Shown one piece after another: positions 3,723 to 55,029 of a DNA stretch of 64,000 bases. The position numbers and the translations under genes were made by a program. The notes beneath the pieces were generated by a model. That model saw only the letters and a program-made list of their open reading frames with translations. It searched no databases and had not been told where the DNA came from. The stretch comes from a virus. Location: IMG/VR virus record IMGVR_UViG_3300032397_000001; one strand, given 5' to 3'. Position 1 is the stretch's first letter; each line of letters begins with the position of its first letter.

Positions 3723-4583
3723 ATGGCTCAAAGTGAACTTGCAAAAGCAACGTTAACAGTAACGTATAAAGAGGTCTGTGAAGCCACTAATAAAGGTTTC
3801 ACACTTCAACTGGATGACGTTAAGAATGTTGGTAAAACGTCATTCGCTCCAGGTGATATTGCTTACATTCGAGTTTATCCGGGAGGGTTCAGACCGGATC
3901 GATACATCACAATGGGTAATTCGACGTCTGTAGGTTCCGGAGTAGATGAGATTGATGATGAGTGTGTAACGTTTGTGCGGTCTGATAGTGGATCAAAGCA
4001 GTACTATAGTGAAAGATGTTCCTTCGAATGGTTGGGTAGATATCGAATTGTTGATAATCGTGATAGTAAAAATATTTATAAAGATTCTGATTCTGATTCT
4101 AAGGGAGGATCATCAAGTTCTGGGTTCTCTACGGAGTTCGTTAAGGTAAGGTTTGACGGGTGGGATATTTATGTGTCTGAAGTAGTTTCGGGAATAATGA
4201 AATTGACTTATGATGCTCTATATGATCTTTGGTCTTTAACATGTAGTGAAGAAGCTACAGTTCTGGTAGAAGCTGAGTTGCTCGGGCACCCCAAATTTGG
4301 TGATATGTATGGAAGTATTATTGTTGACTTTACTGCAGAAACAACAATTCGAGATTGCTTCATTACGGTAAAGGATGCTTGTACTGGATCTATTGTTGCG
4401 GGGGCATCTATAGGATTAGGTACACCTGGAGGAGTAAAAAGCTTTGTTACTGATGCTGCAGGGCGTGCTCATGTAGGCCAATTGATGACAGGTGCCTCCT
4501 ATCCTATTGATGTGTCTGCATATGGATATCAAAGCTCGAATGCTGATCGCTTAGCTAATGACTCTATCACAATTCAAGGTTAA
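3723..4583 (+). CDS. tail tip protein with C-terminal Cna-B/carboxypeptidase-regulatory-like domain
   Basis: ITVKDACTGSIVAGASI...TDAAGRA...YPIDVSAYGY motif. Confidence 0.55.
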   Translation: MAQSELAKATLTVTYKEVCEATNKGFTLQLDDVKNVGKTSFAPGDIAYIRVYPGGFRPDRYITMGNSTSVGSGVDEIDDECVTFVRSDSGSKQYYSERCSFEWLGRYRIVDNRDSKNIYKDSDSDSKGGSSSSGFSTEFVKVRFDGWDIYVSEVVSGIMKLTYDALYDLWSLTCSEEATVLVEAELLGHPKFGDMYGSIIVDFTAETTIRDCFITVKDACTGSIVAGASIGLGTPGGVKSFVTDAAGRAHVGQLMTGASYPIDVSAYGYQSSNADRLANDSITIQG

Positions 4584-11003: not shown

Positions 11004-11153
11004 AACATTCAATGGAGGTGATTAAAAATGGCAATCAAAGATGAGCTTCTCGAAATCAATGAGATTCTGCAGCAGTGGTTAGAAGGAGGCATGACAGAAG
11101 AGGAAGCAATGAGGCATATTATCGTTGTTGTGGCTAAGCAATTGACTTCAATG
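11004..11153 (+). repeat. 150-bp exact direct repeat, copy 1 (copy 2 at 12503-12652)
   Basis: base-for-base identity; partial copies at about 12439-12502 and 12658-12716. Confidence 0.95.
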
Positions 11154-38819: not shown

Positions 38820-39026
38820 ATGAAGAAGAAGATTGTTAGTACAATCAATCTGACAGAACAGTGGTACAGCCCCAAGATGGTGTCTCGTATGATGCCAGAT
38901 GTGACTCCAGATGATGTCTGTCTTTGGGCTAGAAAGGGCTTTATCGCAGCACAGAAGAAAGGCCGCTGCTGGCGCATTCACAGACAGACAGCCCTTTCGC
39001 TTGCGCGTAATGGACGACCAGTATAA
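38820..39026 (+). CDS. excisionase-like HTH_17 DNA-binding protein
   Basis: PDDVCLWARKGFIAAQKKGRCWRI. Confidence 0.75.
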   Translation: MKKKIVSTINLTEQWYSPKMVSRMMPDVTPDDVCLWARKGFIAAQKKGRCWRIHRQTALSLARNGRPV

Positions 39027-39366
39027 AGGAATAAGGTAATGAGTGCAATGAGTTTAGCTCGTGATGTCTGTAGTCTTACTGCTACAGTAACAATTGCTTG
39101 GATTATAGTGTTAGTTTGGAAGTTCGTTTTATATATTGTTACCTATCAGGAGGATGATTGATGAGTTTACCTGGAGATGTTATTTATCTAGAAGCTGTTA
39201 TGCCGGGTGGAAAAGTGATAATAGGGTCATGGGTGCTTCCAGACAGAAGCCTAACAAATTTTGACGCACAAGCAGATATTGGGTGGCATATCATGCTGTG
39301 CATGTTAGATGGAGCTACTGAGGTCAAAGTTAGAGTGGATAAACCAAAGGAGAAGGAGGAGAAGAC

Positions 39367-39705
39367 ATGAGGGATATGGTGAGGGATTGGATTAAGGACC
39401 AAGAGAATGAGTGCTGCGAATATTTTGAGAAGAGTAAAAATGAAGCCCTCTCAGCCCTCGATGCAGAGCGTGCCGAGCACGCCCAAGTAAAGAAACAACT
39501 CCTTGACCTCAACAGTAGAATTCAAGATGAACTCAATGCTGCCAAATTTTCCCTAAATGATGTTCAGAGTCTAGTCGGGATACAGCAGGAGGAAGTCGCC
39601 AACCTCAAACAGCGCATCGCCGAGCTTGAGGCGCACCCATATCGAGAATATCAACTGCAGCTTGCGAGACTTTTGCATACAGAGGAGAAGGAGGAGAAGC
39701 CATGA
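39367..39705 (+). CDS. mosaic coiled-coil protein, scaffold family 1
   Basis: ALDAERAEHA...EVANLKQRIAELE...EKEEKP. Confidence 0.75.
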   Translation: MRDMVRDWIKDQENECCEYFEKSKNEALSALDAERAEHAQVKKQLLDLNSRIQDELNAAKFSLNDVQSLVGIQQEEVANLKQRIAELEAHPYREYQLQLARLLHTEEKEEKP

Positions 39706-40004
39706 GCGACGTTGTGCGTGACTTCCTCTGGAGCCAGAAGGTGCATGGCTGCTATGGGGCCGTGGATGCCCTTGTCGCCCTCGACGCAGAGCGTGTCGAG
39801 CACGCCAGGCAGGTTGAGGATATCAAGTTCCGCTGCACTTGGCTCCATAGCGATCTTGAGCAGCAGGTTGCCGACCTCAAGAGAGAACTGCGAGATACGA
39901 ACCACACGAACAATATGTGCATCGTCGACCTCCGGCAGCGCATCTCCGAGCTGGAGGCACAAAAATGTGGGTGTGGGTTGCTGGATGAGGAGGAGCAGCC
40001 ATGA
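39702..40004 (+). CDS. mosaic coiled-coil protein, family 1
   Basis: MSDVVRD...ALDAERVEHARQ...QVADL...QRISELE. Confidence 0.75.
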   Translation: MSDVVRDFLWSQKVHGCYGAVDALVALDAERVEHARQVEDIKFRCTWLHSDLEQQVADLKRELRDTNHTNNMCIVDLRQRISELEAQKCGCGLLDEEEQP

Positions 40005-40183
40005 TCGGGAGTATGGTGAAGCATGTCCTGCACAATTATGTCCCATGGCGCAGTCAAAACTCTCTATGGTATGAAGCCCTAGCCGACCTTGAAGCGTTGC
40101 AGGCGAGGGTGAAAGATCAAGAGCAGCGCATCGCCGACCTTGAGGCACAGCTTCAGGACGAGAAGGAGGAGGAGACCCCATGA
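40001..40183 (+). CDS. small protein with the family-1 C-terminal box
   Basis: QRIADLE...EKEEETP. Confidence 0.65.
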   Translation: MIGSMVKHVLHNYVPWRSQNSLWYEALADLEALQARVKDQEQRIADLEAQLQDEKEEETP

Positions 40184-40280
40184 CTTTTCCCGACTCATTT
40201 ATTATTGGCTGGCTACTGGGTGCAATCACCGGGTTGCTTGGAGCCCTACTGTATCTGAGTCTGTAAGGAGGGGAGAAGCC

Positions 40281-40769
40281 ATGAGCGACGTGACGCCTAT
40301 GTGTAAAGGGTGTGAAAAGTTATTTGCTCTGCTGACGGCAGAACGTGCCGAGCACGCAGGGCATATTGTCGATCTGGAACAACATATTAAAGCCCTCGAC
40401 ATTCGGTGGGACAAAAGAGAGTATGCCAAGGAGGTTGCCGACCTCAAAAAGGAACTTACCAGAGTGAGTTGTATGCATTCGGATGCACATGCGAAGGTGA
40501 TCAATTTGGAGAAGCAGGTTGATGACCTTCAGAGGACAATTGACTTTCTGAGGCAGCGCATCCACGAGCTGGATGCCGAACATGCCGAGCAAATTTCCGA
40601 CCTTGCGGAAGGTAACTTGCGTGTACAGCATGTTGCTGCTGTTGAAAATAGTAGGCTGAGACAGGAAGTTGCCTCTCTTCAAGAGCAAAACAACTTCCTT
40701 GTGTTAGAACTTGAGATTATATCTGAGTTAAAACAACAAATTGAAGTAAAAGTAAAACAACTTCCTTAA
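40281..40769 (+). CDS. mosaic coiled-coil protein, family 1 (repeated boxes)
   Basis: MSDV...AERAEHA...EVADL...QRIHELDAEHAEQ. Confidence 0.75.
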   Translation: MSDVTPMCKGCEKLFALLTAERAEHAGHIVDLEQHIKALDIRWDKREYAKEVADLKKELTRVSCMHSDAHAKVINLEKQVDDLQRTIDFLRQRIHELDAEHAEQISDLAEGNLRVQHVAAVENSRLRQEVASLQEQNNFLVLELEIISELKQQIEVKVKQLP

Positions 40770-40840
40770 TGAGTTAGATGAAAAGGGAATCTTCTGGAGA
40801 TATGGAAACTTAGGCTAATAAGGAATAAGGAATAAATAAA

Positions 40841-41252
40841 ATGAGATTGGATATTGTTATAGTTGCTAAAACAAAAGAAGAGTTTGTTGGCGCATTACAG
40901 TCTATGATAGAACAAGTTCAATTATCTAATACTCCATCTAATTCGTCTATGATTACTGAAGATGGAATAGATGTGGATTTTTCATTTACTGATTGTGATG
41001 ATATATATGCTGATATATCTAATTGTAAAGTAATTTTCCCCTCAGATTATTATGAAAGGGTAGCAAAAAATGAACAAGGAGATTAGTTTGAAGAAAGTTG
41101 CAAACTTAGGCTATGGACTTACTATCAAAAAGGATGATCTAGGATATTATTTAATTTTAAATAATGATAATAAAAATGTAATTGTATTGAATGGTCCTTG
41201 GTTAGATTGGGCGAAGAATGAAGAACGGTGGGAAGAACCGGGAACATGGTGA
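40841..41252 (+). other. two very AT-rich small genes (40841-41086, 41070-41252) inserted in the array
   Basis: abrupt composition shift; followed by a 14-bp repeat x3 (41253-41297). Confidence 0.6.
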
Positions 41253-41335
41253 CAGGATAGGTGAATCAGGACAGGTGAATCAGGACAGGTGAATCAGATT
41301 GCGAGACTTTTGCATACAGAGAAGGAGGAGAAGCC

Positions 41336-41884
41336 ATGAAAGACGGCAAGCGCGAGGCAATCTCAAAGGTGTTGGACGTAGCCCGGGAACTCATCGAGCA
41401 GCACCTCGACGAGCACCACGGGCCGCATGTTCATCATGTTGCGCTTGGGATAGGGGTTATGTCAGGGCTTCCGATTGAATATGTTCCCGAGGAATCCGTG
41501 AATTATCCTACTGATCCTGACTACCCTCCCACCAGGCTGAGCGGGACGATGGAGCCTGAGTGGTGTAAACATCTTGTTACGCATACAGAGAATGACAAGC
41601 TTGTGTGCAGTGGGTGTGGTGCAATTGGAAATGACCTGAGCAAGAGCTGTGGTATCGAATGGCCCAAGGTCAAGAATCCGGGGAACAAGATCAAGGTGGG
41701 GTGCGAGTATTGCGCCTATTCCACCGCGTCAGGGTGGCCGACTCGTTGTCTCTGCCGTCGGTATCCTCCTCCGGATCCGAGGGAACCTGGGCCGGATGCA
41801 AAGCTCTCCCGTTGGCCGATAGTGCATATCCAGTCGTGGTGTGGTGAGTTTGATCCTGGAGAAGGTTTCCCGTTCCGCTGGTAA
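41336..41884 (+). CDS. mosaic Zn-finger protein, family 2
   Basis: EQHLDEHHGPH, PTRLSGTMEPE, CRRYPP...WPIV...WCGEF. Confidence 0.7.
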   Translation: MKDGKREAISKVLDVARELIEQHLDEHHGPHVHHVALGIGVMSGLPIEYVPEESVNYPTDPDYPPTRLSGTMEPEWCKHLVTHTENDKLVCSGCGAIGNDLSKSCGIEWPKVKNPGNKIKVGCEYCAYSTASGWPTRCLCRRYPPPDPREPGPDAKLSRWPIVHIQSWCGEFDPGEGFPFRW

Positions 41885-41895
41885 GGAGGAGTGAC

Positions 41896-42372
41896 ATGAG
41901 TTTCGCCCAAGCCTATGTATGCAATCAATGCGGCCTGGCTCAAAGGAAGTACGTTCCTCCTCTCTGGACCACCCCGATAGCTTTTCACCAATGCTGCCCA
42001 CAATGCGGGGCAGGAATAGAGGATATTCGTCTGGCAATAGGAGAATGGAAACAACAAAGAATAGTGCGCGGATTGTGGCCGTTCAGATTTGTTGAATATG
42101 TGGATAGCGTATTTGAAGAAAAACCAGAATGCCGCAGAACCAGCGCCACAGATGTGGACATTACCAGGCATTGCCCCGTCTGCGTAGTTGACGACGATTC
42201 ACCGACGAGGCTAGGCGGGACGATGGAGCCGGAGCATCAGTTTGTCACCAGGGATGATTTCGATCAATTCCGCTCTTGGCTGAGCCAGCAGAGAACCGCA
42301 GAGTGGACTCGGTTGATGGAGCACTCACACGGGGTAAACGGGGAAGTAATCTTCCCGGACATGGAGGAGTGA
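41896..42372 (+). CDS. mosaic protein, family 2
   Basis: Zn ribbon, PTRLGGTMEPE, and a MEHSH box shared with 45929. Confidence 0.7.
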   Translation: MSFAQAYVCNQCGLAQRKYVPPLWTTPIAFHQCCPQCGAGIEDIRLAIGEWKQQRIVRGLWPFRFVEYVDSVFEEKPECRRTSATDVDITRHCPVCVVDDDSPTRLGGTMEPEHQFVTRDDFDQFRSWLSQQRTAEWTRLMEHSHGVNGEVIFPDMEE

Positions 42373-42505
42373 AACGAAATGAAAACCATGCTAGGTGCGT
42401 GCTTCGGATTCGTTTTCGGTTACCTAATTATCTGTCTCATCTTCAATAAGCTGAGAAGGAAGTCGCCAACCTCAAACAGCGCATCGCCGAGCTGGAGGAA
42501 GGACG

Positions 42506-42911
42506 ATGACTGAAAAAAGGAAATTGTGCCCATTGTTAATGATGGGATGGATGGCATGTCCAAAGGATTTCGGCAAAGACGCAGGAGGTATCTGTTGTTG
42601 TAAAAAGGAAAAATGTGCTTGGTGGTATGAGAATTATGCAGGATGCAGTGTTTGGGTAATGGCTAGAGAACTGGATGGGATAGAAGAAAAAACCACATAA
42701 AAGGAGGAGTGACATGGAAGCACTGCTACATTCTGTGGAAAAGACGATGGAGAACTTCACACTGTTCATGAATACCACTGTGACTGGGTTTGAACTCATG
42801 GGGAAAGTCTTTGAAAAGCTACAGAACGAAATCTACATACTGGGATTCTGGTGTCTTGGTATCACGGTTTGGCTGGCTGCACTTTCGTGGCGCTCAAGAA
42901 AGAAGGAGTAG
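42506..42911 (+). other. two small genes (Cys-rich 42506-42700; TM-anchored 42714-42911)
   Basis: GGAGGA RBSs. Confidence 0.6.
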
Positions 42912-42978
42912 TAGTACGGATAGAAGAACCCGAGTGGCTTATGGTCTGGCACGACCGTTTGGTAGGAAGGGGACTAAC

Positions 42979-43527
42979 ATGAGGGAAAGGAAGGGCCGGG
43001 TAATAAGAGTGATGGTTTGTTCTATGGTTGCGGTGATCTTTTCGCTGGTCAGTCTGGCTATCATTCTTTTCACTTTAGGCGACTGCACCGATTCCTCGAC
43101 CGAGGCCTGGCCAGCGGATTTCTGGGTTTCCGGGATCCTCGTCTTCGGTGACGTTCTCCCTGACGAGCAGGATGCCATCACCCGGCTCTCTACTGCCATT
43201 CAGGCTCTTAGCTATTCCATCGACGGCCTCCCCACCGTGATCTTCATTCGCTCACCTGATCAGCATATCCCCAAGATCTGCAAGTGCAGTCACTGCACTG
43301 ACGTATGGTCCGAAGTGCCCGGCGTGATCGGAGTCAAGGAGCGAGTAGCCGGCGAGGGACTGAGCGGCCTTCGGCGCGGAGGGATGATCTTCGTGAGCCG
43401 GATCGGAGACCGGAAGGGAATGCTGGACGAACTCCTGGCGCATGAATTCGCACATTGGCTTTGCGACTGCGGGGATGGAGTGAGGGTTGGTGTGTTGGAA
43501 GGAGAGTTGATTAAGAGGATGTTGTAA
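42979..43527 (+). CDS. membrane-anchored HExxH metallopeptidase-like protein
   Basis: N-terminal TM helix; LLAHEFAH. Confidence 0.55.
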   Translation: MRERKGRVIRVMVCSMVAVIFSLVSLAIILFTLGDCTDSSTEAWPADFWVSGILVFGDVLPDEQDAITRLSTAIQALSYSIDGLPTVIFIRSPDQHIPKICKCSHCTDVWSEVPGVIGVKERVAGEGLSGLRRGGMIFVSRIGDRKGMLDELLAHEFAHWLCDCGDGVRVGVLEGELIKRML

Positions 43528-43683
43528 CTGAAAGGAGTAGTGATATGTTTTTCATCGGAACCGTTCGTCGATTTCTATTTATCGTCGGTAGTCATCGTTG
43601 GAACGCATGGGTGCGAGACTTTACTGCCAGACTTGAAGGATCATGGTTGATAAGAAGTCGGCCACAAAAGAAGGAGTAACATT

Positions 43684-44157
43684 ATGGACTTTGAAAAGGT
43701 AAGCCCCCACGGCTTTATGATCAAGACCTTTGAGAGATATGACCAGCAGCTACGTATTGAATTGGATAGAGATTATTTGCGACGAGACGATATTGACCCT
43801 CCCGGTGATGACGTGATCCGTGAACACCTTATCGAGCACCACCAGTCGCTAATGAAATGGTATGAGAACCATCTAGAGGGTCATGCAGATGCAAAACCAC
43901 CAGACGATCCCTGCCATGGACCGGAGAAGGTGACCTGCTTACACGAAGAGACCTATACCACAAATGACAAACGTGTATGTTTGTTTTGCAGAAAGACTAT
44001 GCACGATTCGCCGCAGCGGTGCGAGTGCAACGACTGTAAAAATATCACATGGGGAGTGAAGAGTAATGGGGTAGAACCTATAAGGTTTTGTCCATTCACT
44101 GGCATGCTAGATGGTCGACCAGCAAGCCGTAAGTTACTGAAGGCCGAGAAGGAATAG
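43684..44157 (+). CDS. mosaic protein, family 2
   Basis: REHLIEHH; C-terminal Zn motifs. Confidence 0.65.
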   Translation: MDFEKVSPHGFMIKTFERYDQQLRIELDRDYLRRDDIDPPGDDVIREHLIEHHQSLMKWYENHLEGHADAKPPDDPCHGPEKVTCLHEETYTTNDKRVCLFCRKTMHDSPQRCECNDCKNITWGVKSNGVEPIRFCPFTGMLDGRPASRKLLKAEKE

Positions 44158-44832
44158 TGAGATGATGTATATCTGCAAGCAAGGTCATATTTTCTCTTCT
44201 AAATCCACTGAGCCTATCTGCCCTACATGCGGTCGCCGCTTGGAGCGAGCGATCTGGGATGACTCCCAGAAGAGGTATATCATGATTCGTCCCTCTAAGA
44301 GGAAGGCTAGGAAGAAGGAGGAGTGAGATATGCGTTGCCCTGAATGTATCAAGCTTGGAATGGTATCTAGAGTTTACTCAGATGGGTGCTCAATGACCCT
44401 CATGGCTATTTTGGAATGGGCACTATTATAACCCGAACAAAACAACTTGCTCCTACCATTGTTCAAATGGCTATGCTTTCTCGGAAGCATCCGGTGGCAG
44501 ATCTCCACCGGATGATGAGAGGTGAGACATGCTATACAGCGGACTTCCACCTAATTTGGTGATTACTCTGGGCATTGTAGCCCTCACTGTCTGTTTTTTC
44601 GGAGCAATAAATGGAGCATTTCTGTTGCTAGACGGGCTTGACCTTCTGAAATGAACGGACGAAGGAGGGGGCGAGATGAAGATGAACAGTTGGCGTTGGT
44701 TCGTTTTAGGATATATAGTAGGGGCCATAGCAGCTACTATTTCAGCCCTATATCTCATCTAGGAGTAGGCGTGTTTACCTTACCTATTGGTGGTTTGCCC
44801 GGCCATTGGAGTTTCCGAAAGGACCAAGTTCG

Positions 44833-45147
44833 ATGAGCGACATAGTGATGAACTATATTAAAGCAAGTAATTGGACACCCCACAAAGAAGATATAATTGT
44901 TGCCCTTAAGGCCGAGCGTGTTGAGCACGCGAGACAGACTGCCAAGCTTGAGGCTAAAGCTCAAATATCTTTCGACGGAGAAAGTAGGATGCTTTCGGTT
45001 GTTGCCGACCTCACCGAGCAACTGGAGGAAGCTACTGATATCATCAAAAAACTGCTTGGTGTAAATCAAGTGAGTGATGAGGAAATGGTTAAAGCTATCG
45101 AGTGGGCAAAGAAGTCTCCAGCAATGAGAAATTCTGTTGAGAAGTAA
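44833..45147 (+). CDS. mosaic coiled-coil protein, family 1
   Basis: MSDIV...ALKAERVEHARQ...VVADL. Confidence 0.7.
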   Translation: MSDIVMNYIKASNWTPHKEDIIVALKAERVEHARQTAKLEAKAQISFDGESRMLSVVADLTEQLEEATDIIKKLLGVNQVSDEEMVKAIEWAKKSPAMRNSVEK

Positions 45148-45148
45148 T

Positions 45149-45589
45149 ATGGGCGGACCAAAAATAAGCGATGGTTTGAGTCGACAACGACGTTGGCAAT
45201 TACGTCGCACTGCAGAAGGATGTTGTCAGACGTGTGGGCTTCCACTAAATAAGCATTCTTATCAATGTGATTCTTGCTCCGAAAAGAGCACGATCCGAGA
45301 AAAGCGGCGTTATAAACAACGAATATCAAATGGGAAATGCCCCTGCTGTGGTAGAGAGCATTCATCATCAACCGTTGTTTGTCCAGAATGTCTTGAAGAT
45401 AAATCTTCAAGAGTAAAGAGACTGAAGTCTGAGGGAAGATGTATCAGATGTGGAGCTATAACAGAAGGTAGATTCAGTTGTAACGCTTGTATTGTTATTG
45501 GGCGTGAGAGAGCTCGAAAGAGAAGAGGTTGTGTAAGACGTAATATTAATGCTATGTCATATCAAATCAGTAAGGAGGGAGTAAAATGA
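45149..45589 (+). CDS. basic protein with three GxCxxCG...CxxC repeats
   Basis: repeated Zn-binding units. Confidence 0.65.
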   Translation: MGGPKISDGLSRQRRWQLRRTAEGCCQTCGLPLNKHSYQCDSCSEKSTIREKRRYKQRISNGKCPCCGREHSSSTVVCPECLEDKSSRVKRLKSEGRCIRCGAITEGRFSCNACIVIGRERARKRRGCVRRNINAMSYQISKEGVK

Positions 45590-45928
45590 AACTGTGGGAT
45601 AGAGTGAGAGGTACAGCTGTCGTAGCAGGAATTCATATTATGAATAAGGTTAGCAAAGAAGTTTATTTCTAAGCCCGCCTGGGGTCAGGTTAACCTTGCA
45701 ACGTTCGGGACGGAGACCTGGCCTATATTCAGCGAACAGGATGAAAAGGGAGAGGATAAAGATGCTACTCTGTGACCACGCTATTGAGTGCGGCCAGCGA
45801 TGTAAGCACGCCATTGCTCACGAGTCTTTCGGTCAGCAGTGCGAGGGGGAGTGGAAGTGCGTACATGTTAAGGCCGATGAGCGAACTCTGTGCAAGCCAC
45901 TCAAGGAGAAGGAGAAGGAGGAGAAGTG

Positions 45929-46453
45929 ATGCACAAGATTGACTGGGAAGGTCTGAAGCGTCTTCATGGAGATAATTGGACTATCGAACTCGTCCGGCAA
46001 CTGGATGAGCGGTTTGCAAAGAGGGAGGAATTTGAGGAACACAGTAAGTGGCTGCTCAGTCAACAAACAGCAGCATGGGATAGGATAATGGATCATAGTC
46101 ACTCGGCGAAAGGAGAACTTGTATTTCCACCGACGGAGCCCATCACGGTTACCCGAAACATGGTGGGGGCCTGCAGTCCCATCGAGGAGGATGAGATCCA
46201 GCCAAACACGGTCTGTGACAGCGAAGTTGGATGTGTAACTTTCCCAGAGGATTGGGTTGTAGACACCGTGACGGCAACGCAGCGGGGTTGCAAGTGCCCG
46301 TTATGCTATTCGGTGGTCCAGCCGAAGGCGGAGTGTAATCATCCATGCCACGTGATTAACCGTTCTGGACTCCACTATGCGGAGGTCACCGGGAAGTGGG
46401 CATACTGTGCTAGATGTGGCCTCTCGCTGGCCGCGAAGGAGGAGAAGACATGA
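45929..46453 (+). CDS. mosaic protein, family 2
   Basis: WDRIMDHSH box; WAYCARCG...KEEKT. Confidence 0.7.
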   Translation: MHKIDWEGLKRLHGDNWTIELVRQLDERFAKREEFEEHSKWLLSQQTAAWDRIMDHSHSAKGELVFPPTEPITVTRNMVGACSPIEEDEIQPNTVCDSEVGCVTFPEDWVVDTVTATQRGCKCPLCYSVVQPKAECNHPCHVINRSGLHYAEVTGKWAYCARCGLSLAAKEEKT

Positions 46454-46737
46454 ACTGGAAAAAAGTAAATGAGTGCTGGAACACTAAGAGTGACATCACC
46501 TATGCGCTTGAGGAGATGCTACGTCAGCACCTGGAGGAGTGCCACAAAGAGATAGTGCAGTTAAAATGCCCAGGCTGCGAGCAGTGGTTCGCAAGTGACA
46601 GGTGGATGAAAAAGCCAGCCAAGCTGTGTGAGTGTACAAATAGAATCTGCGGTAGATCGCAGATCAACGGAGTCTGGGTTAATTGGGACTATTGTCCGAA
46701 GTGCGGAAAGCTGCTGGAGAAGGAGGAGAAGCCATGA
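46450..46737 (+). CDS. mosaic Zn-ribbon protein, family 2
   Basis: RQHLEECH; WDYCPKCGKLLEKEEKP. Confidence 0.7.
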   Translation: MNWKKVNECWNTKSDITYALEEMLRQHLEECHKEIVQLKCPGCEQWFASDRWMKKPAKLCECTNRICGRSQINGVWVNWDYCPKCGKLLEKEEKP

Positions 46738-46872
46738 ACCGTCTAGCAATGATTGATTTTCTAAACACCAGACTTCGATCATTCAAAACCCCTTGGTATC
46801 GATGGGCAATAGATATTACATGGGACAAACTTGAGCGATGGGCAAAAATGCTTGGATGGAAGGAGAAGTGAT

Positions 46873-47265
46873 ATGGACTGGGGCCAGGAGCGTACCGAGT
46901 ACGAGAAGGAGATTGATAACCTAAACCAAGATCGGGCTAACGGGTGTGCATGCCTATTTGTGAATTCTGTTTGCATGTCTCAGTGTTCTTATCACGCCAA
47001 GCAGGTTGTCGACCTACAAGCAAAACTGGAAGCCTGGTATACTTGGTATTCTTTCCCCAAGTGGAGGAGAGACGATAGTCACGCCACGCAGGTTAAGGAT
47101 TTAGAAACACAGATAATCGACTTACGGCGGCAGATACACAAAATAAAAAAAATGTATTCTGCTTTGTCTGGCCCTCGCGCTCATGGACTGGGTTGCGATT
47201 GTGGTGAGCAAGTTAAAAGCGGCTATACTTGTAAACAGTTTTCGGACCTCATGAAGGAGGAGTAA
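46873..47265 (+). CDS. mosaic protein with family-1 boxes
   Basis: HAKQVVDL, HATQVKDL. Confidence 0.65.
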   Translation: MDWGQERTEYEKEIDNLNQDRANGCACLFVNSVCMSQCSYHAKQVVDLQAKLEAWYTWYSFPKWRRDDSHATQVKDLETQIIDLRRQIHKIKKMYSALSGPRAHGLGCDCGEQVKSGYTCKQFSDLMKEE

Positions 47266-47624
47266 TGGATTGGAAGAAGATATATCTGGAGATACAAAGT
47301 AGAGGCTGTCATGAAGATTTTCCTCAAGATTTAATTGATGCGTTGCGGGAGTATAACTGTCAGCACCTAGCCAAGCACCACGGGCCACATCGTCATCGCT
47401 TTGGAGATGGGGTGTGGGTAACTGGAAGTGAGTTGCCTATGGATAAACCGGCAGTTGACGACGACCCTCCGACGAGGTTGAGCGGGACGATGGAGCCGGA
47501 GCGGAGCGAGTGCGACGGCTCATGCCATGACCCAGTTAATTACAATTTCTACCACATCGACAGAGGATGGGAGTTCTGCCCTTGGTGTGGCAAGCCACTC
47601 GACAAGAAGGAGGAGAAGCCATGA
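47265..47624 (+). CDS. mosaic protein, family 2
   Basis: QHLAKHHGPH, PTRLSGTMEPE, WEFCPWCGKPLDKKEEKP. Confidence 0.75.
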   Translation: MDWKKIYLEIQSRGCHEDFPQDLIDALREYNCQHLAKHHGPHRHRFGDGVWVTGSELPMDKPAVDDDPPTRLSGTMEPERSECDGSCHDPVNYNFYHIDRGWEFCPWCGKPLDKKEEKP

Positions 47625-47950
47625 GCGACGTGGTGGGGGAGTTCATCAACAGTGAGGATTGCGAACATCCCTCTGCTTGCTTTACCGAAACTCACATCTG
47701 CACAAAATGCCGAATCATTGCACGACAAGCCCTCGACGCAGAGCGTGTCGAGCACCAGCAATCCTTGGAACTCCTAGATGCAGAATTAAAAAGACAGTCA
47801 GAGGCACTGCATTTCGGAACGTCCCAATTTGTACTCAACAAAAGAGCCGATGAACTCGTAAGGCAGGTAGCCGACCTCCAGCAACGCATCTCCGATCTTA
47901 AGGCGAAGTCATGCCCATACCATGCTCCATGCGAGGAGAGGGATGAATAG
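47621..47950 (+). CDS. mosaic protein, family 1
   Basis: MSDVV...CEHPSACFTE...ALDAERVEH...QVADLQQRISDL. Confidence 0.75.
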   Translation: MSDVVGEFINSEDCEHPSACFTETHICTKCRIIARQALDAERVEHQQSLELLDAELKRQSEALHFGTSQFVLNKRADELVRQVADLQQRISDLKAKSCPYHAPCEERDE

Positions 47951-47992
47951 TGCTCGATTCCGAGAAAATCTATACAAGCAACTGATTACTAC

Positions 47993-48021
47993 TTGACAAT
48001 CTATTAGAAATTCGCTATACT
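47993..48021 (+). promoter_or_regulatory. near-consensus sigma70 promoter
   Basis: TTGACA-17-TATACT. Confidence 0.85.
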
Positions 48022-48043
48022 TTACTCAGGGAGAAAATACAAA

Positions 48044-48358
48044 ATGAGAATCTTTGATGTTGTGAATAAAAATAATTGTGGGTTCTTCTGTATGGCTAAA
48101 GATGAACAAGATGCACTTGCCCTTGCTAAAGAAGTTAAACATCTCAGGACTTCTCCCAAGCGTATAATTGACATAACTGAGAATCTAAAAAACGAGAATG
48201 GAATCTCTGAATTGATGATTGAACAGTATCGTGGAAGGTTATCCAAACAGATAACAGCAATTTCTTTTGATCAACTTTTGGTGTTTCCAGGTATGCACTC
48301 TCCGAGTTGTTGGATGAAATGGGGACAAAGTATTATGGTTGGTGATGGAATCTATTAA
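48044..48358 (+). CDS. hypothetical protein (moron-like, own promoter)
   Basis: GGGAG RBS, AT-rich. Confidence 0.65.
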   Translation: MRIFDVVNKNNCGFFCMAKDEQDALALAKEVKHLRTSPKRIIDITENLKNENGISELMIEQYRGRLSKQITAISFDQLLVFPGMHSPSCWMKWGQSIMVGDGIY

Positions 48359-48571
48359 AAGAGGAGGAGAAGCCATGAATAGAAATACCGAGTGGTTAAT
48401 GGGCTGGCATGATCGAATGTTTGAAAAGTACGGACACCCAAAGGGCGGGATCGACTGGTGCAGAAAGTTGGCTAATTTTATGGACGAGCTTGGCAATGAT
48501 GATCCATCAGATGCGGCGATTAAGGAGGCCATGAAGTGGGAAGCTGAAAACCCAGAGAAGGAGGAGAAGAC

Positions 48572-48835
48572 ATGAAGTATCGCAAGAAACCCATAGTGAT
48601 TGAGGCAATACGATACAATGGAGACAACTTTAATTGCATTCGCCTATTCGTTGGCAATACACCATTACATCGGGTGGGTGATGATAAACTTGGCATCCAA
48701 ACCCTTGAGGGTATAATGATAGCCAACCCAGGCGACTGGATAATCAAGGGGATAAAAGGCGAGTTTTATCCTTGCAAAAATGACATATTTGAGGCTACCT
48801 ATGATCTGTTGGTCGAGAAGGAGGAGGAGCCATGA
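48572..48835 (+). CDS. widespread phage protein (PGDYG-like)
   Basis: KYRKKPIVIEA...IQTLEG...PGDWIIKGIKGEFYPCK, ending in EKEEEP. Confidence 0.8.
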   Translation: MKYRKKPIVIEAIRYNGDNFNCIRLFVGNTPLHRVGDDKLGIQTLEGIMIANPGDWIIKGIKGEFYPCKNDIFEATYDLLVEKEEEP

Positions 48836-49104
48836 GCGACGTGGTGCGTGATGAGTTACAGATAGCGATTGGGCTGGCAACTGGTATCAACAAGCAGCGA
48901 TGGATAAATGTCCTTGCTGCCCTCGACGCAGAGCGGGAGGAGCACGCCCAAGCAGCCGAGTTGCTGAACGCTGAAGTTAAGCGGAAAGCACCAGTTGTAG
49001 AAATGTGCGACTACCGTTGCAAAGTGGACACAGATTACGAGAACTGGATGTATTGCCCAACGTGCGGTAAGTTGCTGCGATATTGGAAAGAAACTACCAG
49101 GTAA
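48832..49104 (+). CDS. hybrid: family-1 N-terminus with family-2 Zn-ribbon C-terminus
   Basis: MSDVVRD...ALDAEREEHAQ...WMYCPTCGK. Confidence 0.75.
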   Translation: MSDVVRDELQIAIGLATGINKQRWINVLAALDAEREEHAQAAELLNAEVKRKAPVVEMCDYRCKVDTDYENWMYCPTCGKLLRYWKETTR

Positions 49105-49142
49105 AGAGTGGTAGAGAAACTTTCAATGAAAACCCTATTGAC

Positions 49143-49170
49143 AAACATCTGGTGGATGTTTTTTTTTTTT
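49143..49170 (+). terminator. rho-independent terminator
   Basis: AAACATC-tggtg-GATGTTT followed by a long T run. Confidence 0.7.
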
Positions 49171-49180
49171 CTGAAAGTAC

Positions 49181-49209
49181 TTGACATCTGTTTGTAAGTA
49201 TGCTATACT
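49181..49209 (+). promoter_or_regulatory. near-consensus sigma70 promoter with extended -10
   Basis: TTGACA-17-TATACT, with TG one base upstream of the -10. Confidence 0.85.
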
Positions 49210-49243
49210 TAGATCATACAACAAACATGAAAGGGGAATTGAA

Positions 49244-49540
49244 ATGAGTACAATTCGTTTTGACTCACCTTTAGTGGAAGGATTGAGAAGAGGGATAGTA
49301 GCAGAGTTAAATTCTCAAGTTCAAAGTGACGATCCTGTAACTGAACGTCAACGTCTTGAAAAGGTTGAGGGTCAAGTATGGGATACTCAAGAACTGTCAA
49401 GAGATTTTGAAGTGTTGAGTTTTCTTGCTCCGTTTGTTGTTGTAATAAGGAAGGTTGATAATGTCAAAGGTACTTTGACCTTTCAACATCGTCCGAGATT
49501 TTATTTTGATTTTGTTGAAGATACATGGAAACCCTCATGA
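49244..49540 (+). CDS. conserved hypothetical protein (moron-like)
   Basis: GQVWDTQELSRDFEVLSFLAPFVVV...FQHRPRFYF. Confidence 0.7.
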   Translation: MSTIRFDSPLVEGLRRGIVAELNSQVQSDDPVTERQRLEKVEGQVWDTQELSRDFEVLSFLAPFVVVIRKVDNVKGTLTFQHRPRFYFDFVEDTWKPS

Positions 49541-49553
49541 AAGGAGGGGTGAG

Positions 49554-49823
49554 ATGAGCGATTTACCAAGAGCCTTTATCAACATGGAAAACTGTGATCA
49601 TCCCGCGGCTTGTTTTACGGAAATACGCATCTGTTGCCATTGTCAGATTGCAGCCCTTGCCGCCCTCGACGCAGAGCGTGAGGGGCGCGCCAAGCAGATA
49701 AGTTTATCCGAGGTCAAGATTTCTAACCTACGTTCCGAGTACGTCGGGGAGATTACTTTTCTCAACCTATGTATATTGGGGCTTGAGAAGCGGTTGCGAA
49801 ACGAGAAGGAGGAAGGACGGTGA
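49554..49823 (+). CDS. mosaic protein, family 1
   Basis: CDHPAACFTE (shared with 47621) plus ALDAERE. Confidence 0.7.
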   Translation: MSDLPRAFINMENCDHPAACFTEIRICCHCQIAALAALDAEREGRAKQISLSEVKISNLRSEYVGEITFLNLCILGLEKRLRNEKEEGR

Positions 49824-49933
49824 TCGGGGATAAGGCGAAACTGGTACTTACGGTCTATGTCCCGTACTTTAGTCAAACTGGGGCGTGGCAGAAGGGGATT
49901 AGAGAACTAGAGTCATGCAAGGAAAGCTGGTAG
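49820..49933 (+). pseudogene. frameshifted paralog of 40001
   Basis: GTG ATC GGG, then a shifted frame KAKLVLTVYVPYFSQ aligning with MVKHVLHNYVPWRSQ. Confidence 0.55.
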
Positions 49934-50215: not shown

Positions 50216-50713
50216 ATGGAAAATGAGGAGGGAACTTTTCAGTTAGATTGGGATACAATTACGAGTCCTTTGTCAGATGATTTCAGACCATTATTAGAGT
50301 TCCTTAAAAGATATCATAAGCAACTCTGTTTAAAGTTATTAGCCTCAGCAATAATTATAGATAAGCAAGAAATTCTTATTCAGTTAAGAAATTTGAATCA
50401 GCAGGTTGACAATCTCGAAGTGAATATTGGTCGTCTTGGGGAGTATATAGATACTATTAGGAATGATTTACTAACTGAGATGAGGAGAGAATCATGGCTG
50501 AAGAAGAACATTCGAAAGATCAAGAAAGTGTTATACCAAATCTTGCGAACGCCCTTGAGAATCCTGAAGCACCTAAGAAGCGAGAACGATACCAATCACA
50601 ATCAGGATTCATTGCAGTGTCACTCCATAGAGGATATACCGAAATCGGAATCCTGGACTCAAATCTCCAATCAGAAGTCGGAAAGAGCGCCTTCATCTGT
50701 GGAGGATACGTAA
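50216..50713 (+). CDS. hypothetical coiled-coil protein
   Basis: GGAG RBS; overlaps the next gene by 220 nt. Confidence 0.5.
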   Translation: MENEEGTFQLDWDTITSPLSDDFRPLLEFLKRYHKQLCLKLLASAIIIDKQEILIQLRNLNQQVDNLEVNIGRLGEYIDTIRNDLLTEMRRESWLKKNIRKIKKVLYQILRTPLRILKHLRSENDTNHNQDSLQCHSIEDIPKSESWTQISNQKSERAPSSVEDT

Positions 50714-51303
50714 GATACTGTGCAAGCCCTCGACGTGTACCTGAACCCGCATCAGATGTAGATGTGTACTGTAAGGATGAAGAGACGTTTCTACATCTGA
50801 AGGAATTCTTCAAGAGAATTGATTTGAGTGTACGTCATGAGAATGACATCTCTCTCACGTATACGTTGCCCAAAGAGAGTACTCATCCATACTTCTATGC
50901 ACCTGCTGTTCAGTTGATTAAACCTATACGTGAAGGACGTGTTGTAGCGAATGGTTCAATGGTAGAGATTCTCGAGAATTTCGATTTCACTGTCATTCGT
51001 TGTGGTTTAATAGATGAGAATACAGCTATGGTTGATGCGGACTTTCTCCATGATGAGGAACATAAAGAATTACGTTTGAAAACTATCCATTGTCCCATCA
51101 GTAGTACACTTCGTTGTATGAAGTACGCAAGGAAGGGATATTGGTTAAGACCGTTTGAATGTTTGAGACTCTTTCTGGATTGGGAATCACGGTCTGAAGA
51201 TTATCGTAACAAGTTACGCAACTTTCTTGAGAAGTCGGCAATTAATGGTGAATTCACAAAAGAAGAGGTAAATGAGCTCGAGGCTTTAATGAGAATAGAT
51301 TAG
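50494..51303 (+). CDS. nucleotidyltransferase (CCA/poly(A) polymerase head-like)
   Basis: FICGGYVR, SDVDVY, ILENFDFTV. Confidence 0.8.
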   Translation: MAEEEHSKDQESVIPNLANALENPEAPKKRERYQSQSGFIAVSLHRGYTEIGILDSNLQSEVGKSAFICGGYVRYCASPRRVPEPASDVDVYCKDEETFLHLKEFFKRIDLSVRHENDISLTYTLPKESTHPYFYAPAVQLIKPIREGRVVANGSMVEILENFDFTVIRCGLIDENTAMVDADFLHDEEHKELRLKTIHCPISSTLRCMKYARKGYWLRPFECLRLFLDWESRSEDYRNKLRNFLEKSAINGEFTKEEVNELEALMRID

Positions 51304-51315
51304 GAGGGGAAAGAG

Positions 51316-51501
51316 ATGAATCAGATTAAAATGTTAACGGCTAAGGAAGTTGCTCGTATTATAGATTGTTCTCCAGATGATGCTTCTGATTGGGCACGTA
51401 AAGGAAAGATCAAGGCTTTCAAGCATGGCCGATTTTGGTGTTTTCGTTTGAGTGATGTTCAAGCGTTCAAGAAATCATTGGAAGGAGCTCATCATGTCTA
51501 A
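51316..51501 (+). CDS. excisionase-like HTH_17 protein, paralog of 38820
   Basis: LTAKEVARIIDCSPDDASDWARKGKIKAFKHGRFWCF. Confidence 0.8.
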   Translation: MNQIKMLTAKEVARIIDCSPDDASDWARKGKIKAFKHGRFWCFRLSDVQAFKKSLEGAHHV

Positions 51502-53469: not shown

Positions 53470-54347
53470 AAGGTGTAAGACGTTTCGTTGTACATCATAT
53501 TCGTGATGTACAGGAAGCCGCGAAAACTATTGAATTCTTCCGAAAAGATGAATTCCGAGTGATCGGAGTCGAGATACCTCGATCACTAGCAACACAATTG
53601 AAACTTGATGATAATATCATTCATGATATATATCCCGCTTGTATCAACGCTGTTTCTGTTAAGCTAACCTTCAAAAATCTCATCCTCATTTTAAAGCCAG
53701 ATCTAGATTCATTAGCAGCGGTCGCAGTCATAAAGAAGATTGCTTATCGCGAACCCTTCACAGAAGATACTTTAAAGAAAGTTGATTTGATTGCTCGCCA
53801 CGATGCAGGCAATTCAGTTTTAACTGTTGAAGAGCATATTCTAGTTGGTCGCTTGATAACTGCTGTTCAACAAACAAAATTCTTCGAGAAGTGGAAAACA
53901 GTTTACGAATGGCTTGCAGGAAAGCTTGCGCTGGAAGGTTATGATAGTTCAACTAAGTCGTCGAGACAACTTATTTTGGAAAGGCATAATAATATTCTTG
54001 TGGTTGTAAGTTTTGGTTTAGGAGCGTTTTCACGTAAGTTTCTTAGAATGTATCCTTGTGTGATTGCACTTAACCCAAATGCGATACTCATGGGAAACAA
54101 TAAGGGTCGTCGATACTGTATAGGATCTCAATATCAACTAGATGACCTTTGCATGAAGATAAACGAGATTGAAGAGGGGTGGGGTGGTCACGCTAATATA
54201 ATTTGTAGTCCACCAATACGACCATCAAAGTTAGAGTTGAATGAGGTTATCAATTGCGTACAGCGATCAGGATTAGTGGATGAAGCAGTAGTAAAAGAGG
54301 ATTCAATTCCTGTAGAGGAGGATACTTGTGAAGCTGATATTAGCTGA
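53454..54347 (+). CDS. DHH-like phosphoesterase-fold protein (tentative)
   Basis: PDLDSLAA, IARHD, EEGWGG...SP. Confidence 0.4.
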   Translation: MEVKLKGVRRFVVHHIRDVQEAAKTIEFFRKDEFRVIGVEIPRSLATQLKLDDNIIHDIYPACINAVSVKLTFKNLILILKPDLDSLAAVAVIKKIAYREPFTEDTLKKVDLIARHDAGNSVLTVEEHILVGRLITAVQQTKFFEKWKTVYEWLAGKLALEGYDSSTKSSRQLILERHNNILVVVSFGLGAFSRKFLRMYPCVIALNPNAILMGNNKGRRYCIGSQYQLDDLCMKINEIEEGWGGHANIICSPPIRPSKLELNEVINCVQRSGLVDEAVVKEDSIPVEEDTCEADIS

Positions 54348-55029
54348 GACGCCTTATTCAACTTTTCAAGGCGAACAACCTCTATTAGGCCTTCCCATTC
54401 GCATCGTCAGATTTTCTGGATGTAATTTAGCTGGGAAGTGTCCTTTGGATTGTGATACGAAGTATTCGTGGAAGAATAAAGTTGAGGTTTCATTAGACAA
54501 AGTCATAGATCCAGGAAGTTGGCGGGGCTTAATGATCACAGGTGGTGAACCTTTTCTACATAAGGAAGAAATGTTTACGTTAGTTAGGCTGTGGAGTGAT
54601 GAGATTCATTCCCCTATCATTATCGAGACGAATGGAACTCTATTAGAATATATTGATTTGTTTAATTTGGATCGCATTATGAGTCTTCGTTATCTCCACC
54701 AAAATCTCCACCAAAAGATAAACAAGATAAACCTTTCCATTTCACCTAAGACTTTAGAATCATTCCGATTTCTGGAGTATGAGGGCTTCTCATCTATTCA
54801 GACTACATTGAAGGTTGTAGTGGGTTCGAGTTTTCCTCCTCCAGATTGGTATAATTTTATAATGAGAGCTTATCGCAAGCATTTAGCCTCTATTTCATTC
54901 ATGCCTATGGGAGTAACTCCAGAAGAAATTAGAAGTAACTTATCTCATATAGAATTCCTTGCAAGCAAATTGAATATTGATGAATATCTTCTGTCTCCTC
55001 GAATGCATATCTTCTTGAGGATACCGTAA
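54328..55029 (+). CDS. queE: 7-carboxy-7-deazaguanine synthase-like radical SAM protein
   Basis: STFQGE, VRFSGCNL...CDTKYSW, ITGGEPF, IETNGT, ISPK, SPRMH. Confidence 0.8.
   Translation: MKLILAETPYSTFQGEQPLLGLPIRIVRFSGCNLAGKCPLDCDTKYSWKNKVEVSLDKVIDPGSWRGLMITGGEPFLHKEEMFTLVRLWSDEIHSPIIIETNGTLLEYIDLFNLDRIMSLRYLHQNLHQKINKINLSISPKTLESFRFLEYEGFSSIQTTLKVVVGSSFPPPDWYNFIMRAYRKHLASISFMPMGVTPEEIRSNLSHIEFLASKLNIDEYLLSPRMHIFLRIP

Follow-up and report, generated by a model that had tools for sequence, protein, structure and literature searches.

When the same short sequence recurs, base for base, at the boundaries between small genes of different families in a phage, is it only a signal for translation, or is it also a place where genes have been joined? 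The question is raised by IMG/VR record IMGVR_UViG_3300032397_000001, from an uncultured sediment phage, of which a stretch of 64,000 nt with all genes on one strand was analysed (the window; it is part of a contig of at least 169 kb). The sequence in question, GAGAAGGAGGAGAAGMCATGA (the junction), lies in an array of about 39 small co-oriented genes (38820–49933, + strand), which was delimited from composition, the gene list, blastp, the repeat families D1–D20 and the JGI gene calls. We conclude that it is probably a translational-coupling junction that doubles as a short homology linker for recombination.

The junction and its coding tail

Five exact copies of GAGAAGGAGGAGAAGMCATGA, all of which had been reported in a preliminary description of this DNA, were found in the window, on the + strand only (at 39350, 39685, 41319, 46717 and 48555), and dinucleotide shuffles gave 0.00 exact copies. 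Allowing up to three mismatches gives 11 sites, all within 39350–48835 (0.01 in shuffles), and looser copies were recovered by a repeat finder at 40160, 40264 and 49802; the total is five exact and about ten near copies on the + strand between 39.3 and 49.9 kb, every one inside the array. The variants described earlier before the ATGs at 40001, 40180, 40281, 46450, 47621, 48375 and 48832 are likewise all present.

In the frame of the upstream gene the junction reads GAG AAG GAG GAG AAG (C/A)CA TGA, i.e., E-K-E-E-K-P/T-stop. It contains an in-frame Shine-Dalgarno (SD) sequence, AAGGAGG, which codes for Lys-Glu-Glu in the final codons of the upstream gene, followed by a fixed, purine-rich spacer of 7 nt and an ATGA overlap of stop and start. 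AAGGAGG, the 7-nt spacer and ATGA occur together at at least ten boundaries, which fits the anatomy of a translationally coupled junction, and the description of tail, stop, ribosome-binding site and start as one unit is thus borne out. The reported length of 21 bp applies to the exact core, but the shared unit is often longer (24–31 nt, with CTGGCC upstream or ATGAGCGACGTGGTG, encoding MSDVV, downstream). Similarly, the motif forms the tail of the upstream gene at most copies but not at 41319, where a 45-nt remnant precedes the start, nor at 48358, where a TAA precedes it. Extended anti-SD pairing was considered as an explanation for the additional conserved bases, but those outside AAGGAGG presumably do not pair with the 16S tail, as judged from its canonical complement, which may not be that of the host. 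The individual copies are as follows (asterisks mark stops; genes are named by their first position; phage B is a second phage, represented by contigs L086–L090).

39350–39370, + strand: exact junction; tail ..KEKEEKT* of gene 39161–39370, SD sequence, ATGA start of gene 39367
39685–39705, + strand: exact junction; tail ..EEKEEKP* of gene 39367–39705, start of gene 39702 (MSDVV..)
39984–40004, + strand: variant with 3 mismatches; tail ..DEEEQP*, start of gene 40001
40160–40183, + strand: variant with a 3-nt insertion (GAGAAGGAGGAGGAGACCCCATGA); tail ..EKEEETP*, start of gene 40180, encoding a 28-aa membrane peptide
40264–40284, + strand: variant TAAGGAGGGGAGAAGCCATGA; upstream stop TAA fused to the SD sequence, start of gene 40281 (MSDVT..)
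41295–41339, + strand: exact junction (41319–41339) with a 24-nt gene-end remnant (..IARLLHTEKEEKP*); start of gene 41336
41883–41899, + strand: second junction type, AAGGAGGAGTGACATGA, with the stop inside the spacer; also at 42701–42716, 44315–44332 and 47254–47267, and twice in phage B
45912–45932, + strand: variant GAGAAGGAGGAGAAGTGATGC with a TGATG overlap; tail ..KEKEKEEK*, start of gene 45929
46433–46453, + strand: junction with 1 mismatch; tail ..LAAKEEKT*, start of gene 46450
46717–46737, + strand: exact junction; tail ..CGKLLEKEEKP*, start of gene 46734; 24 nt identical in phage B (L086, 2729–2752)
47604–47624, + strand: junction with 1 mismatch; tail ..DKKEEKP*, start of gene 47621 (MSDVV..)
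48358–48378, + strand: variant with 3 mismatches and no tail; the low-GC gene 48044–48358 stops with TAA just upstream; start of gene 48375
48555–48575, + strand: exact junction; tail ..PEKEEKT*, start of gene 48572 (phrog_419 'KYRKKP' protein)
48815–48835, + strand: junction with 1 mismatch; tail ..LLVEKEEEP* on the phrog_419 protein, start of gene 48832 (MSDVV..)
49802–49823, + strand: degenerate junction GAGAAGGAGGAAGGACGGTGA; tail ..NEKEEGR*, GTG start of gene 49820

Twelve of the 39 gene starts in the array lie within three mismatches of GAAGGAGGAGAAGCCATG, compared to none of the 78 other starts in the window even at five mismatches, and ATGA overlaps are found at 11 of 38 array boundaries versus 4 of 77 outside. 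AAGGAGG itself is common across the window (41 sites on the + strand), but its spacers vary outside the array. The earlier statement that the motif was not seen outside this region therefore holds within the 64 kb.

About ten proteins from different families end in the same acidic/basic hexapeptide, which speaks for the proposal, also made in the preliminary description, that EKEEK(P/T) is a selected peptide tag common to the array proteins (as a signal for degradation or localisation, or for interaction); Pro as the last residue before UGA might also slow termination. The peptide, however, varies wherever the DNA varies (DEEEQP, EKEEETP, AKEEKT, KKEEKP, EKEEEP, KEE*, KKE*) while the SD core stays constant, and the copies at 41319 and 48358 are never translated as tails. 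In the last six codons of junction-bearing genes, Glu is always GAG (29 of 29) and Lys always AAG (18 of 18), i.e., there is no synonymous variation among 47 Glu/Lys tail codons, as compared to GAG:GAA of 153:112 and AAG:AAA of 132:91 in the gene bodies (a comparison that is partly circular, the tails having been picked via DNA similarity). The phrog_419 protein was compared with its 80 best homologues in IMG/VR, none of which has the EKEE tail (they end ..IFEATYExx(x)), as had been predicted for the product of gene 48572, so that ..LLVEKEEEP is a local addition to the protein of the window. In phage B, the homologue of gene 48375 terminates in ..NPEEE*, at a junction of another type. Judged from these sequences, the tail is constrained at the nucleotide and not at the peptide level, which fits an accessible ribosome site whose frame is fixed by the 7-nt spacer and the ATGA overlap; a selected tag is very unlikely, and the K/E-rich tail would be a by-product of the in-frame ribosome site.

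Seams between co-occurring phages

In phage B, an exact 24-nt junction (GGAGAAGGAGGAGAAGCCATGAAC) stands between homologues of window genes 45762 and 48375, which are 2.4 kb apart in the window, and the order of genes 45762, 45929 and 48375 differs between the two phages. The window and phage B share a 242-bp module at 99.2% identity; the junction at 45912 marks its left edge, and the shared module begins exactly at the ATG of gene 45929. In further contigs, L098 (1–284) and L117 (4470–4753) are 100% identical and unrelated past ATGAGCG, and L099 (917–1044) and L117 (5367–5494) are 98.4% identical and diverge past ATGAGC. The gene end ..YQLQ(L/I)ARLLHTEEKEEKP* joins four different downstream genes (39702 and 41336 in the window, and those of L098 and L117); at 39685 the shared unit extends to 39716 (ATGAGCGACGTTGTG), and its upstream end joins other genes in L098 and L117. 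The junction at 47604, extended to 47635, is identical over 31 nt to L110, in which the phrog_419 gene starts MSDVV-KYRKKP and the next gene is of the 40001 type. Between L115 and L116, one 65-aa gene is substituted with the neighbours unchanged, and in L176 (IMG/VR, same project) the 45762, 45929 and 40001 modules occur in permuted order. The remnant at 41295–41339 is 45 nt of a 39367-type gene end without its gene body (90% identity to 39658–39696), directly 3' of an insert of two low-GC genes and of a tandem repeat of three units (CAGGACAGGTGAAT, at 41262–41297, between the low-GC insert 40841–41252 and the remnant before gene 41336). As the preliminary description anticipated, gene orders thus differ between relatives and homology blocks stop at the junction. 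With the same 21–31 nt repeated at many boundaries and found in several phages that occur together, the junction amounts to a stretch of homology.

When contigs were compared with the window, 22 distinct block ends were found, 8 of them in junction zones (14% of the array), 8 in D1/D6 coding repeats (6%) and 6 elsewhere. In an all-vs-all comparison of the window array and 15 contigs, 15 of 73 block ends fell in strict junction zones, which make up 3.0% of positions (about 7-fold enrichment, binomial p 4e-9; the contigs are related and the block ends are not independent events, so these figures are indicative only). Some of the breakpoints therefore coincide with the junction, as had been expected of a boundary element, but in the comparison with the window equally many are in coding repeats. 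The D1/D6 repeats (39587–39631, 42454–42498 and others) are 21–45 nt long, encode QRIAELEA and ALDAERAEHA, are nearly base-identical between different genes and phages, and coincide with intragenic breakpoints, so that the shuffling reaches down to the sub-gene level. Since these intragenic repeats are co-enriched, crossovers appear to track homology and not gene edges alone.

Could the junction be a translation signal only (a start-associated sequence, SAS), whose extra bases help initiation or are bound by a factor of the phage or host, with the seams left by selection for intact genes after recombination elsewhere or by illegitimate recombination? It is found at the position of a ribosome-binding site, in one orientation and in the accessory array only, like the SAS of cluster K mycobacteriophages (PMC3203893). 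The exact 21-mer is absent from IMG/VR and occurs as nine single copies in 596 Gb of prokaryote species genomes, which are unrelated and show no prophage array (about 0.5 copies are expected under uniform composition). In a metagenome scan it was found in 39 contigs, about 24 of which are unrelated and mostly high-GC bacterial, with one copy at an ATGA gene junction; because single copies stand at ATGA junctions of such unrelated bacterial contigs, the 21-mer is a recurrent solution, which favours a role in translation alone. The other 15 are phage contigs that share modules of the array's gene 'kit' with the window or carry several junction copies (14 of them belong to the same sediment project; L100 is from Hainich groundwater).

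Other IMG/VR phages (L174/L180, L171 and L192) reuse a shorter version, GGAGGAGAAGCCATGA ('..EEKP*'), which also agrees with a translation signal; in L174 (7257–7986) and L180 (6579–7308), both with a GC content of 0.40, the shorter ..GAGGAGAAGCCATGA ('EEKP*') junction occurs at 3–4 boundaries, with no other similarity to the array. The unrelated phages L077 and L039 have their own 20–25-nt junctions of tail, SD sequence and start, each at three gene boundaries in a row, two of which are the ends of the phrog_419 gene (L077, 1566–2148, IMG/VR: GCACTAAAGGAGCAAGGCGA then [AG]TGA; L039, 1115–1872, IMG/VR: AATTAGAAACTACGGGGGAGTGATG). These lineage-specific junctions differ around the SD sequence, for which copying is a better explanation than convergence. 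Furthermore, blocks of 98–100% identity end inside the junction where both molecules carry it, and the intragenic breakpoints in shared coding repeats point to homology-guided exchange and not to random joints filtered by selection. We therefore regard a purely translational role as unlikely.

How might a linker of this length work? Among 861 pairs of junction copies, the exact bases shared through the ATG number at least 21 in 188 pairs, at least 23 in 80, at least 27 in 23 and at least 31 in 12. De Paepe et al. cite minimal efficient pairing segments of 23–27 bp for Red-beta and 31–34 bp for RecA, and Rad52-like phage recombinases drive mosaicism via short, diverged homology (PMC3945230); the junction identities of 21–31 nt overlap the range of Red-beta. 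In the reading that we prefer, the ribosome terminating on the upstream gene would restart on the next one by way of the internal SD sequence and the ATGA overlap, as the anatomy suggests, and the junctions would tie small accessory genes into a long promoter-poor operon. The junction and the intragenic short repeats would be the places where recombination exchanged, replaced and reordered genes or gene pieces between phages, through a phage single-strand-annealing recombinase or template switching and presumably with no dedicated site-specific machinery. The seams are seen directly in the comparison of contigs; that homology of the junction caused the crossovers is what we infer from their sequences.

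Several observations weigh against the linker. Most block ends (58 of 73) lie outside strict junction zones, and selection for intact genes would by itself place block ends at gene boundaries; the dependence among block ends and the partial circularity of the codon comparison, noted above, count on the same side. The exact core of 21 nt is at or below the reported efficient pairing length, and no recombinase was found in the replication module (50–59 kb) or among the other window genes covered (those at about 10–64 kb and three open reading frames at 1–10 kb), the matches at 50–59 kb being QueE-like, thymidylate kinase-like and families of unknown function in PHROGs and a 5'-3' exonuclease in Pfam. 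No polymorphism was seen within the array of this phage: three near-complete copies (L081–L083) are 100% identical to the window across 19–20.5 kb, so that the shuffling is evolutionary and not visibly ongoing. Contig L084 (14592–16534, at the end of the 154-kb contig Ga0315273_10000013) is identical to the window up to 46168 and then follows phage B, the switch passing through the shared 242-bp module; it may be a real recombinant or an assembly chimera through that module, and for the latter reason it was excluded as evidence. Further on, L084 parts from L086 exactly after a second type of junction (CCAAGAGGAGGCCAAG).

A stronger version of the linker would have the junction kept by selection for evolvability, as a standard 'plug' common to sediment phages on different backbones, on which a phage recombination function acts preferentially, so that genes and sub-gene modules move as pre-wired cassettes, possibly via circles, the Pro/Thr-UGA end being tuned to hold the terminating ribosome. 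We consider this doubtful.

The array and its genomic setting

The array genes are a mix of shared gene and sub-gene modules, as all-vs-all blastp and the repeat families indicate. A coiled-coil family (MSDVV..ALDAERxEHA..QRIxELEA) has at least eight copies, other parts of the kit are an HHGPH..PPTRLSGTMEPE family and CxxCG zinc-ribbon ends, and some modules are C-terminal in one gene but N-terminal in another (41896 and 45929). The kit genes have a GC content of 0.41–0.58 versus about 0.39 in the backbone, and the array is broken by low-GC inserts at 40.8–41.25, 48.04–48.36 and 49.24–49.54 kb.

This composition bears on the possibility that the repeats are the inherited ends of tandemly duplicated paralogues, or a product of chimeric metagenome assembly. 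Many array genes are indeed paralogous (coiled-coil MSDVV, HHGPH and zinc-ribbon ends), some junction copies run into homologous coding sequence, and several assemblies break or switch inside the array. Against this, the junctions flank genes of no fewer than six families that have no detectable similarity to one another, phrog_419 among them. The 41336 protein was found in 23 contigs (JGI, ENA, Logan), with the same local gene order wherever genes are listed, so that the arrangement of the window recurs in these contigs, as does that of phage B in 15 others. Repeats of 21–31 nt are, in addition, far below the final k-mers of assemblers, which counts against assembly chimeras. Inherited ends or chimerism thus have very little probability as an explanation.

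The product of gene 48572 is a member of phrog_419 (E 1e-34). The other array proteins gave only weak coiled-coil noise against Pfam and PHROGs; megablast of the region against the phage GenBank collection returned nothing, and tblastn with the 1006-aa protein against the same collection gave only a weak match to a chaperone domain. For the 41336 protein, no relative was found in IMG/VR, and a search of 5.8 billion proteins returned only itself.

No strong promoter matches were found on the + strand between 38.8 and 47.9 kb and no convincing terminators in the array, and with so few promoters most of the array looks like one long operon. Three matches lie toward its end.

47993–48021, + strand: sigma-70-like promoter (11/12), between genes, in a low-GC insert
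48690–48717, + strand: promoter match (11/12), inside gene 48572
49181–49209, + strand: strong promoter (11/12 with TG), between genes, downstream of a T-run

The intergenic region 49105–49215 consists of a run of 12 T followed by a TTGACA-17-TATACT promoter with an extended -10 TG, and resembles the promoter at 47993.

Directly 3' of the array (50494–51501), a 269-aa protein with a Gad2 match (PF26128) and a 61-aa HTH_17 protein are encoded, which fits an accessory or counter-defence neighbourhood. RNR and the 5'-3' exonuclease are found at 55–59 kb. A QueE-like radical SAM protein (54328–55029; phrog_2076, E 1e-24) in the replication/nucleotide module may, from its sequence, point to 7-deazaguanine DNA modification. 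In a second island of small genes (11–13 kb), another gene start (..GTGGTTAGAAGGAGGCATGACAGAAGAGGAAGCAATGAG) recurs at 11083, 12439, 12582 and 12709. Phage B has a longer tail junction of its own in L086 (590–631 and 1083–1125), CGCCCGAACAGAACCC(A/G)AGAAGTA(T/C)AGGAAGGA(A/G)AAG..(A/G)TGA, which encodes ARTEPxKYRKEKx* and ends two different genes, and at 4370–4600 of L086 a GC-rich imperfect tandem repeat (GGCAGGGCGAGGC..GAGGATCG units) stands at the start of an open reading frame that lies at the end of the contig.

Comparison with known systems

The preliminary description likened the junction to a cassette boundary of an integron. Reassortment at the junction is borne out by the gene end with four partners, the reorderings and the block ends; the integron mechanism is not. 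Such a site-specific system would consist of a dedicated recombinase acting on the 21-bp site, with cassettes excised as circles and reinserted elsewhere. Unrelated genes do lie between direct copies of the site in a promoter-poor array, and the PeSL (promoter-early stem-loop) cassettes of T4-type phages do form mini-circles, though via homologous exchange (PMC2839356). However, the Pfam record for the called genes of the window at about 10–64 kb lists neither an integrase nor any other recombinase family, and none was found among three of the five open reading frames of at least 100 aa at 1–10 kb. The site is all-purine and asymmetric, without an inverted repeat; a hairpin or attC-like fold was sought in five junction copies with flanks, which folded no better than shuffles and had no common structure (z +0.3 to +1.2). 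Breakpoints are not confined to the junction but are also seen in other repeats, and their position shifts by several nt in and around it (the MSDVV fusion in L110, the 45-nt remnant at 41295, the TAA abutting the motif at 48358), and the recovered copies of the array are invariant. None of the 39 motif-bearing contigs is circular (weak evidence only). With no recombinase among the genes covered, no hairpin, imprecise breakpoints and no circular contigs, the likeness is one of layout only, and we consider an integron-like system most improbable. Integron attC/attI arrays are alike in having promoterless, co-oriented, unrelated small genes split by a repeated element; they differ in possessing IntI and the attC hairpin, neither of which was found here, and there is no sign of site-specific cuts.

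The closest known system in behaviour is that of the PeSL cassettes. These are intergenic, consist of a sigma-70 promoter and a terminator hairpin, and their mini-circles have been shown physically (Arbiol et al. 2010, PMC2839356; Comeau et al. 2014, PMC4122927). In both cases a short conserved regulatory unit recurs in hyperplastic regions, between small genes that are not essential, and related phages gain, lose or replace genes through recombination between its copies; here too, the repeats flank small ORFan genes and coincide with the breakpoints of indels and replacements between related phages. PeSL is, however, a transcription unit, whereas the junction is a shorter translation unit in the upstream coding frame, at whose copies neither a promoter-like site nor a hairpin terminator was found, and no circles were seen.

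In anatomy, the closest system is the SAS of cluster K mycobacteriophages (Pope et al. 2011), which has a 13-bp consensus, GGGATAGGAGCCC, often with an upstream inverted repeat (ESAS); its proposed function is translational, and a role as a recombination seam is not described (PMC3203893). Both elements are asymmetric, face one way only and precede an ATG by a few bases (3–7 bp in SAS), with an SD core and positions that are unexplained by 16S pairing; both are confined to a non-structural region, precede genes of different families, and sometimes contain the upstream stop. The placement of the junction is accordingly of the SAS type (+ strand, before ATG, SD core 7 nt upstream, 39.3–49.9 kb, at least six unrelated families). 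The consensus GGGATAGGAGCCC (with up to two deviations) is nevertheless absent, GAGAAGGAGGAGAAGMC taking its place, and here 21–31 nt fix the frame, tail and stop/start overlap, with documented reassortment.

In concept, the junction descends from the boundary sequences of lambdoid phages. Susskind and Botstein (1978) reportedly formulated the modular theory of phage evolution with linker or boundary sequences, and such sequences (e.g., in HK620) are short, conserved, located at gene boundaries and proposed as sites of homologous exchange, although they are generally intergenic and their generality is disputed. As in that proposal, a short conserved sequence at gene boundaries would serve module exchange: the exact junction is present in phage B and in other sediment contigs between non-homologous genes, and blocks end within it. 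Boundary sequences, unlike the junction, are not known to be a coding tail, ribosome-binding site and overlapping start in one, and here sub-genic coding repeats act as well. Termination-reinitiation at 4-nt ATGA overlaps, with the SD sequence inside the upstream reading frame and stop and start overlapping, is itself well established; ordinary coupled junctions are not known to have the same sequence in unrelated gene pairs or in different phages.

The junction would thus be an unusually clean natural case of how phages keep shuffled accessory genes expressed: with ribosome site, stop and start all in the seam, any gene joined there would automatically be coupled to the operon, a design that could be a template for synthetic operon connectors. 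It would carry the idea behind PeSL and boundary sequences over from units of transcription to a translation unit inside a reading frame. Among co-occurring phages, exchange here extends down to sub-gene modules. A recombination connector is a kind of element known in outline, though little described; the one described here is embedded in coding sequence, is common to several phage contexts and works together with sub-genic repeats.

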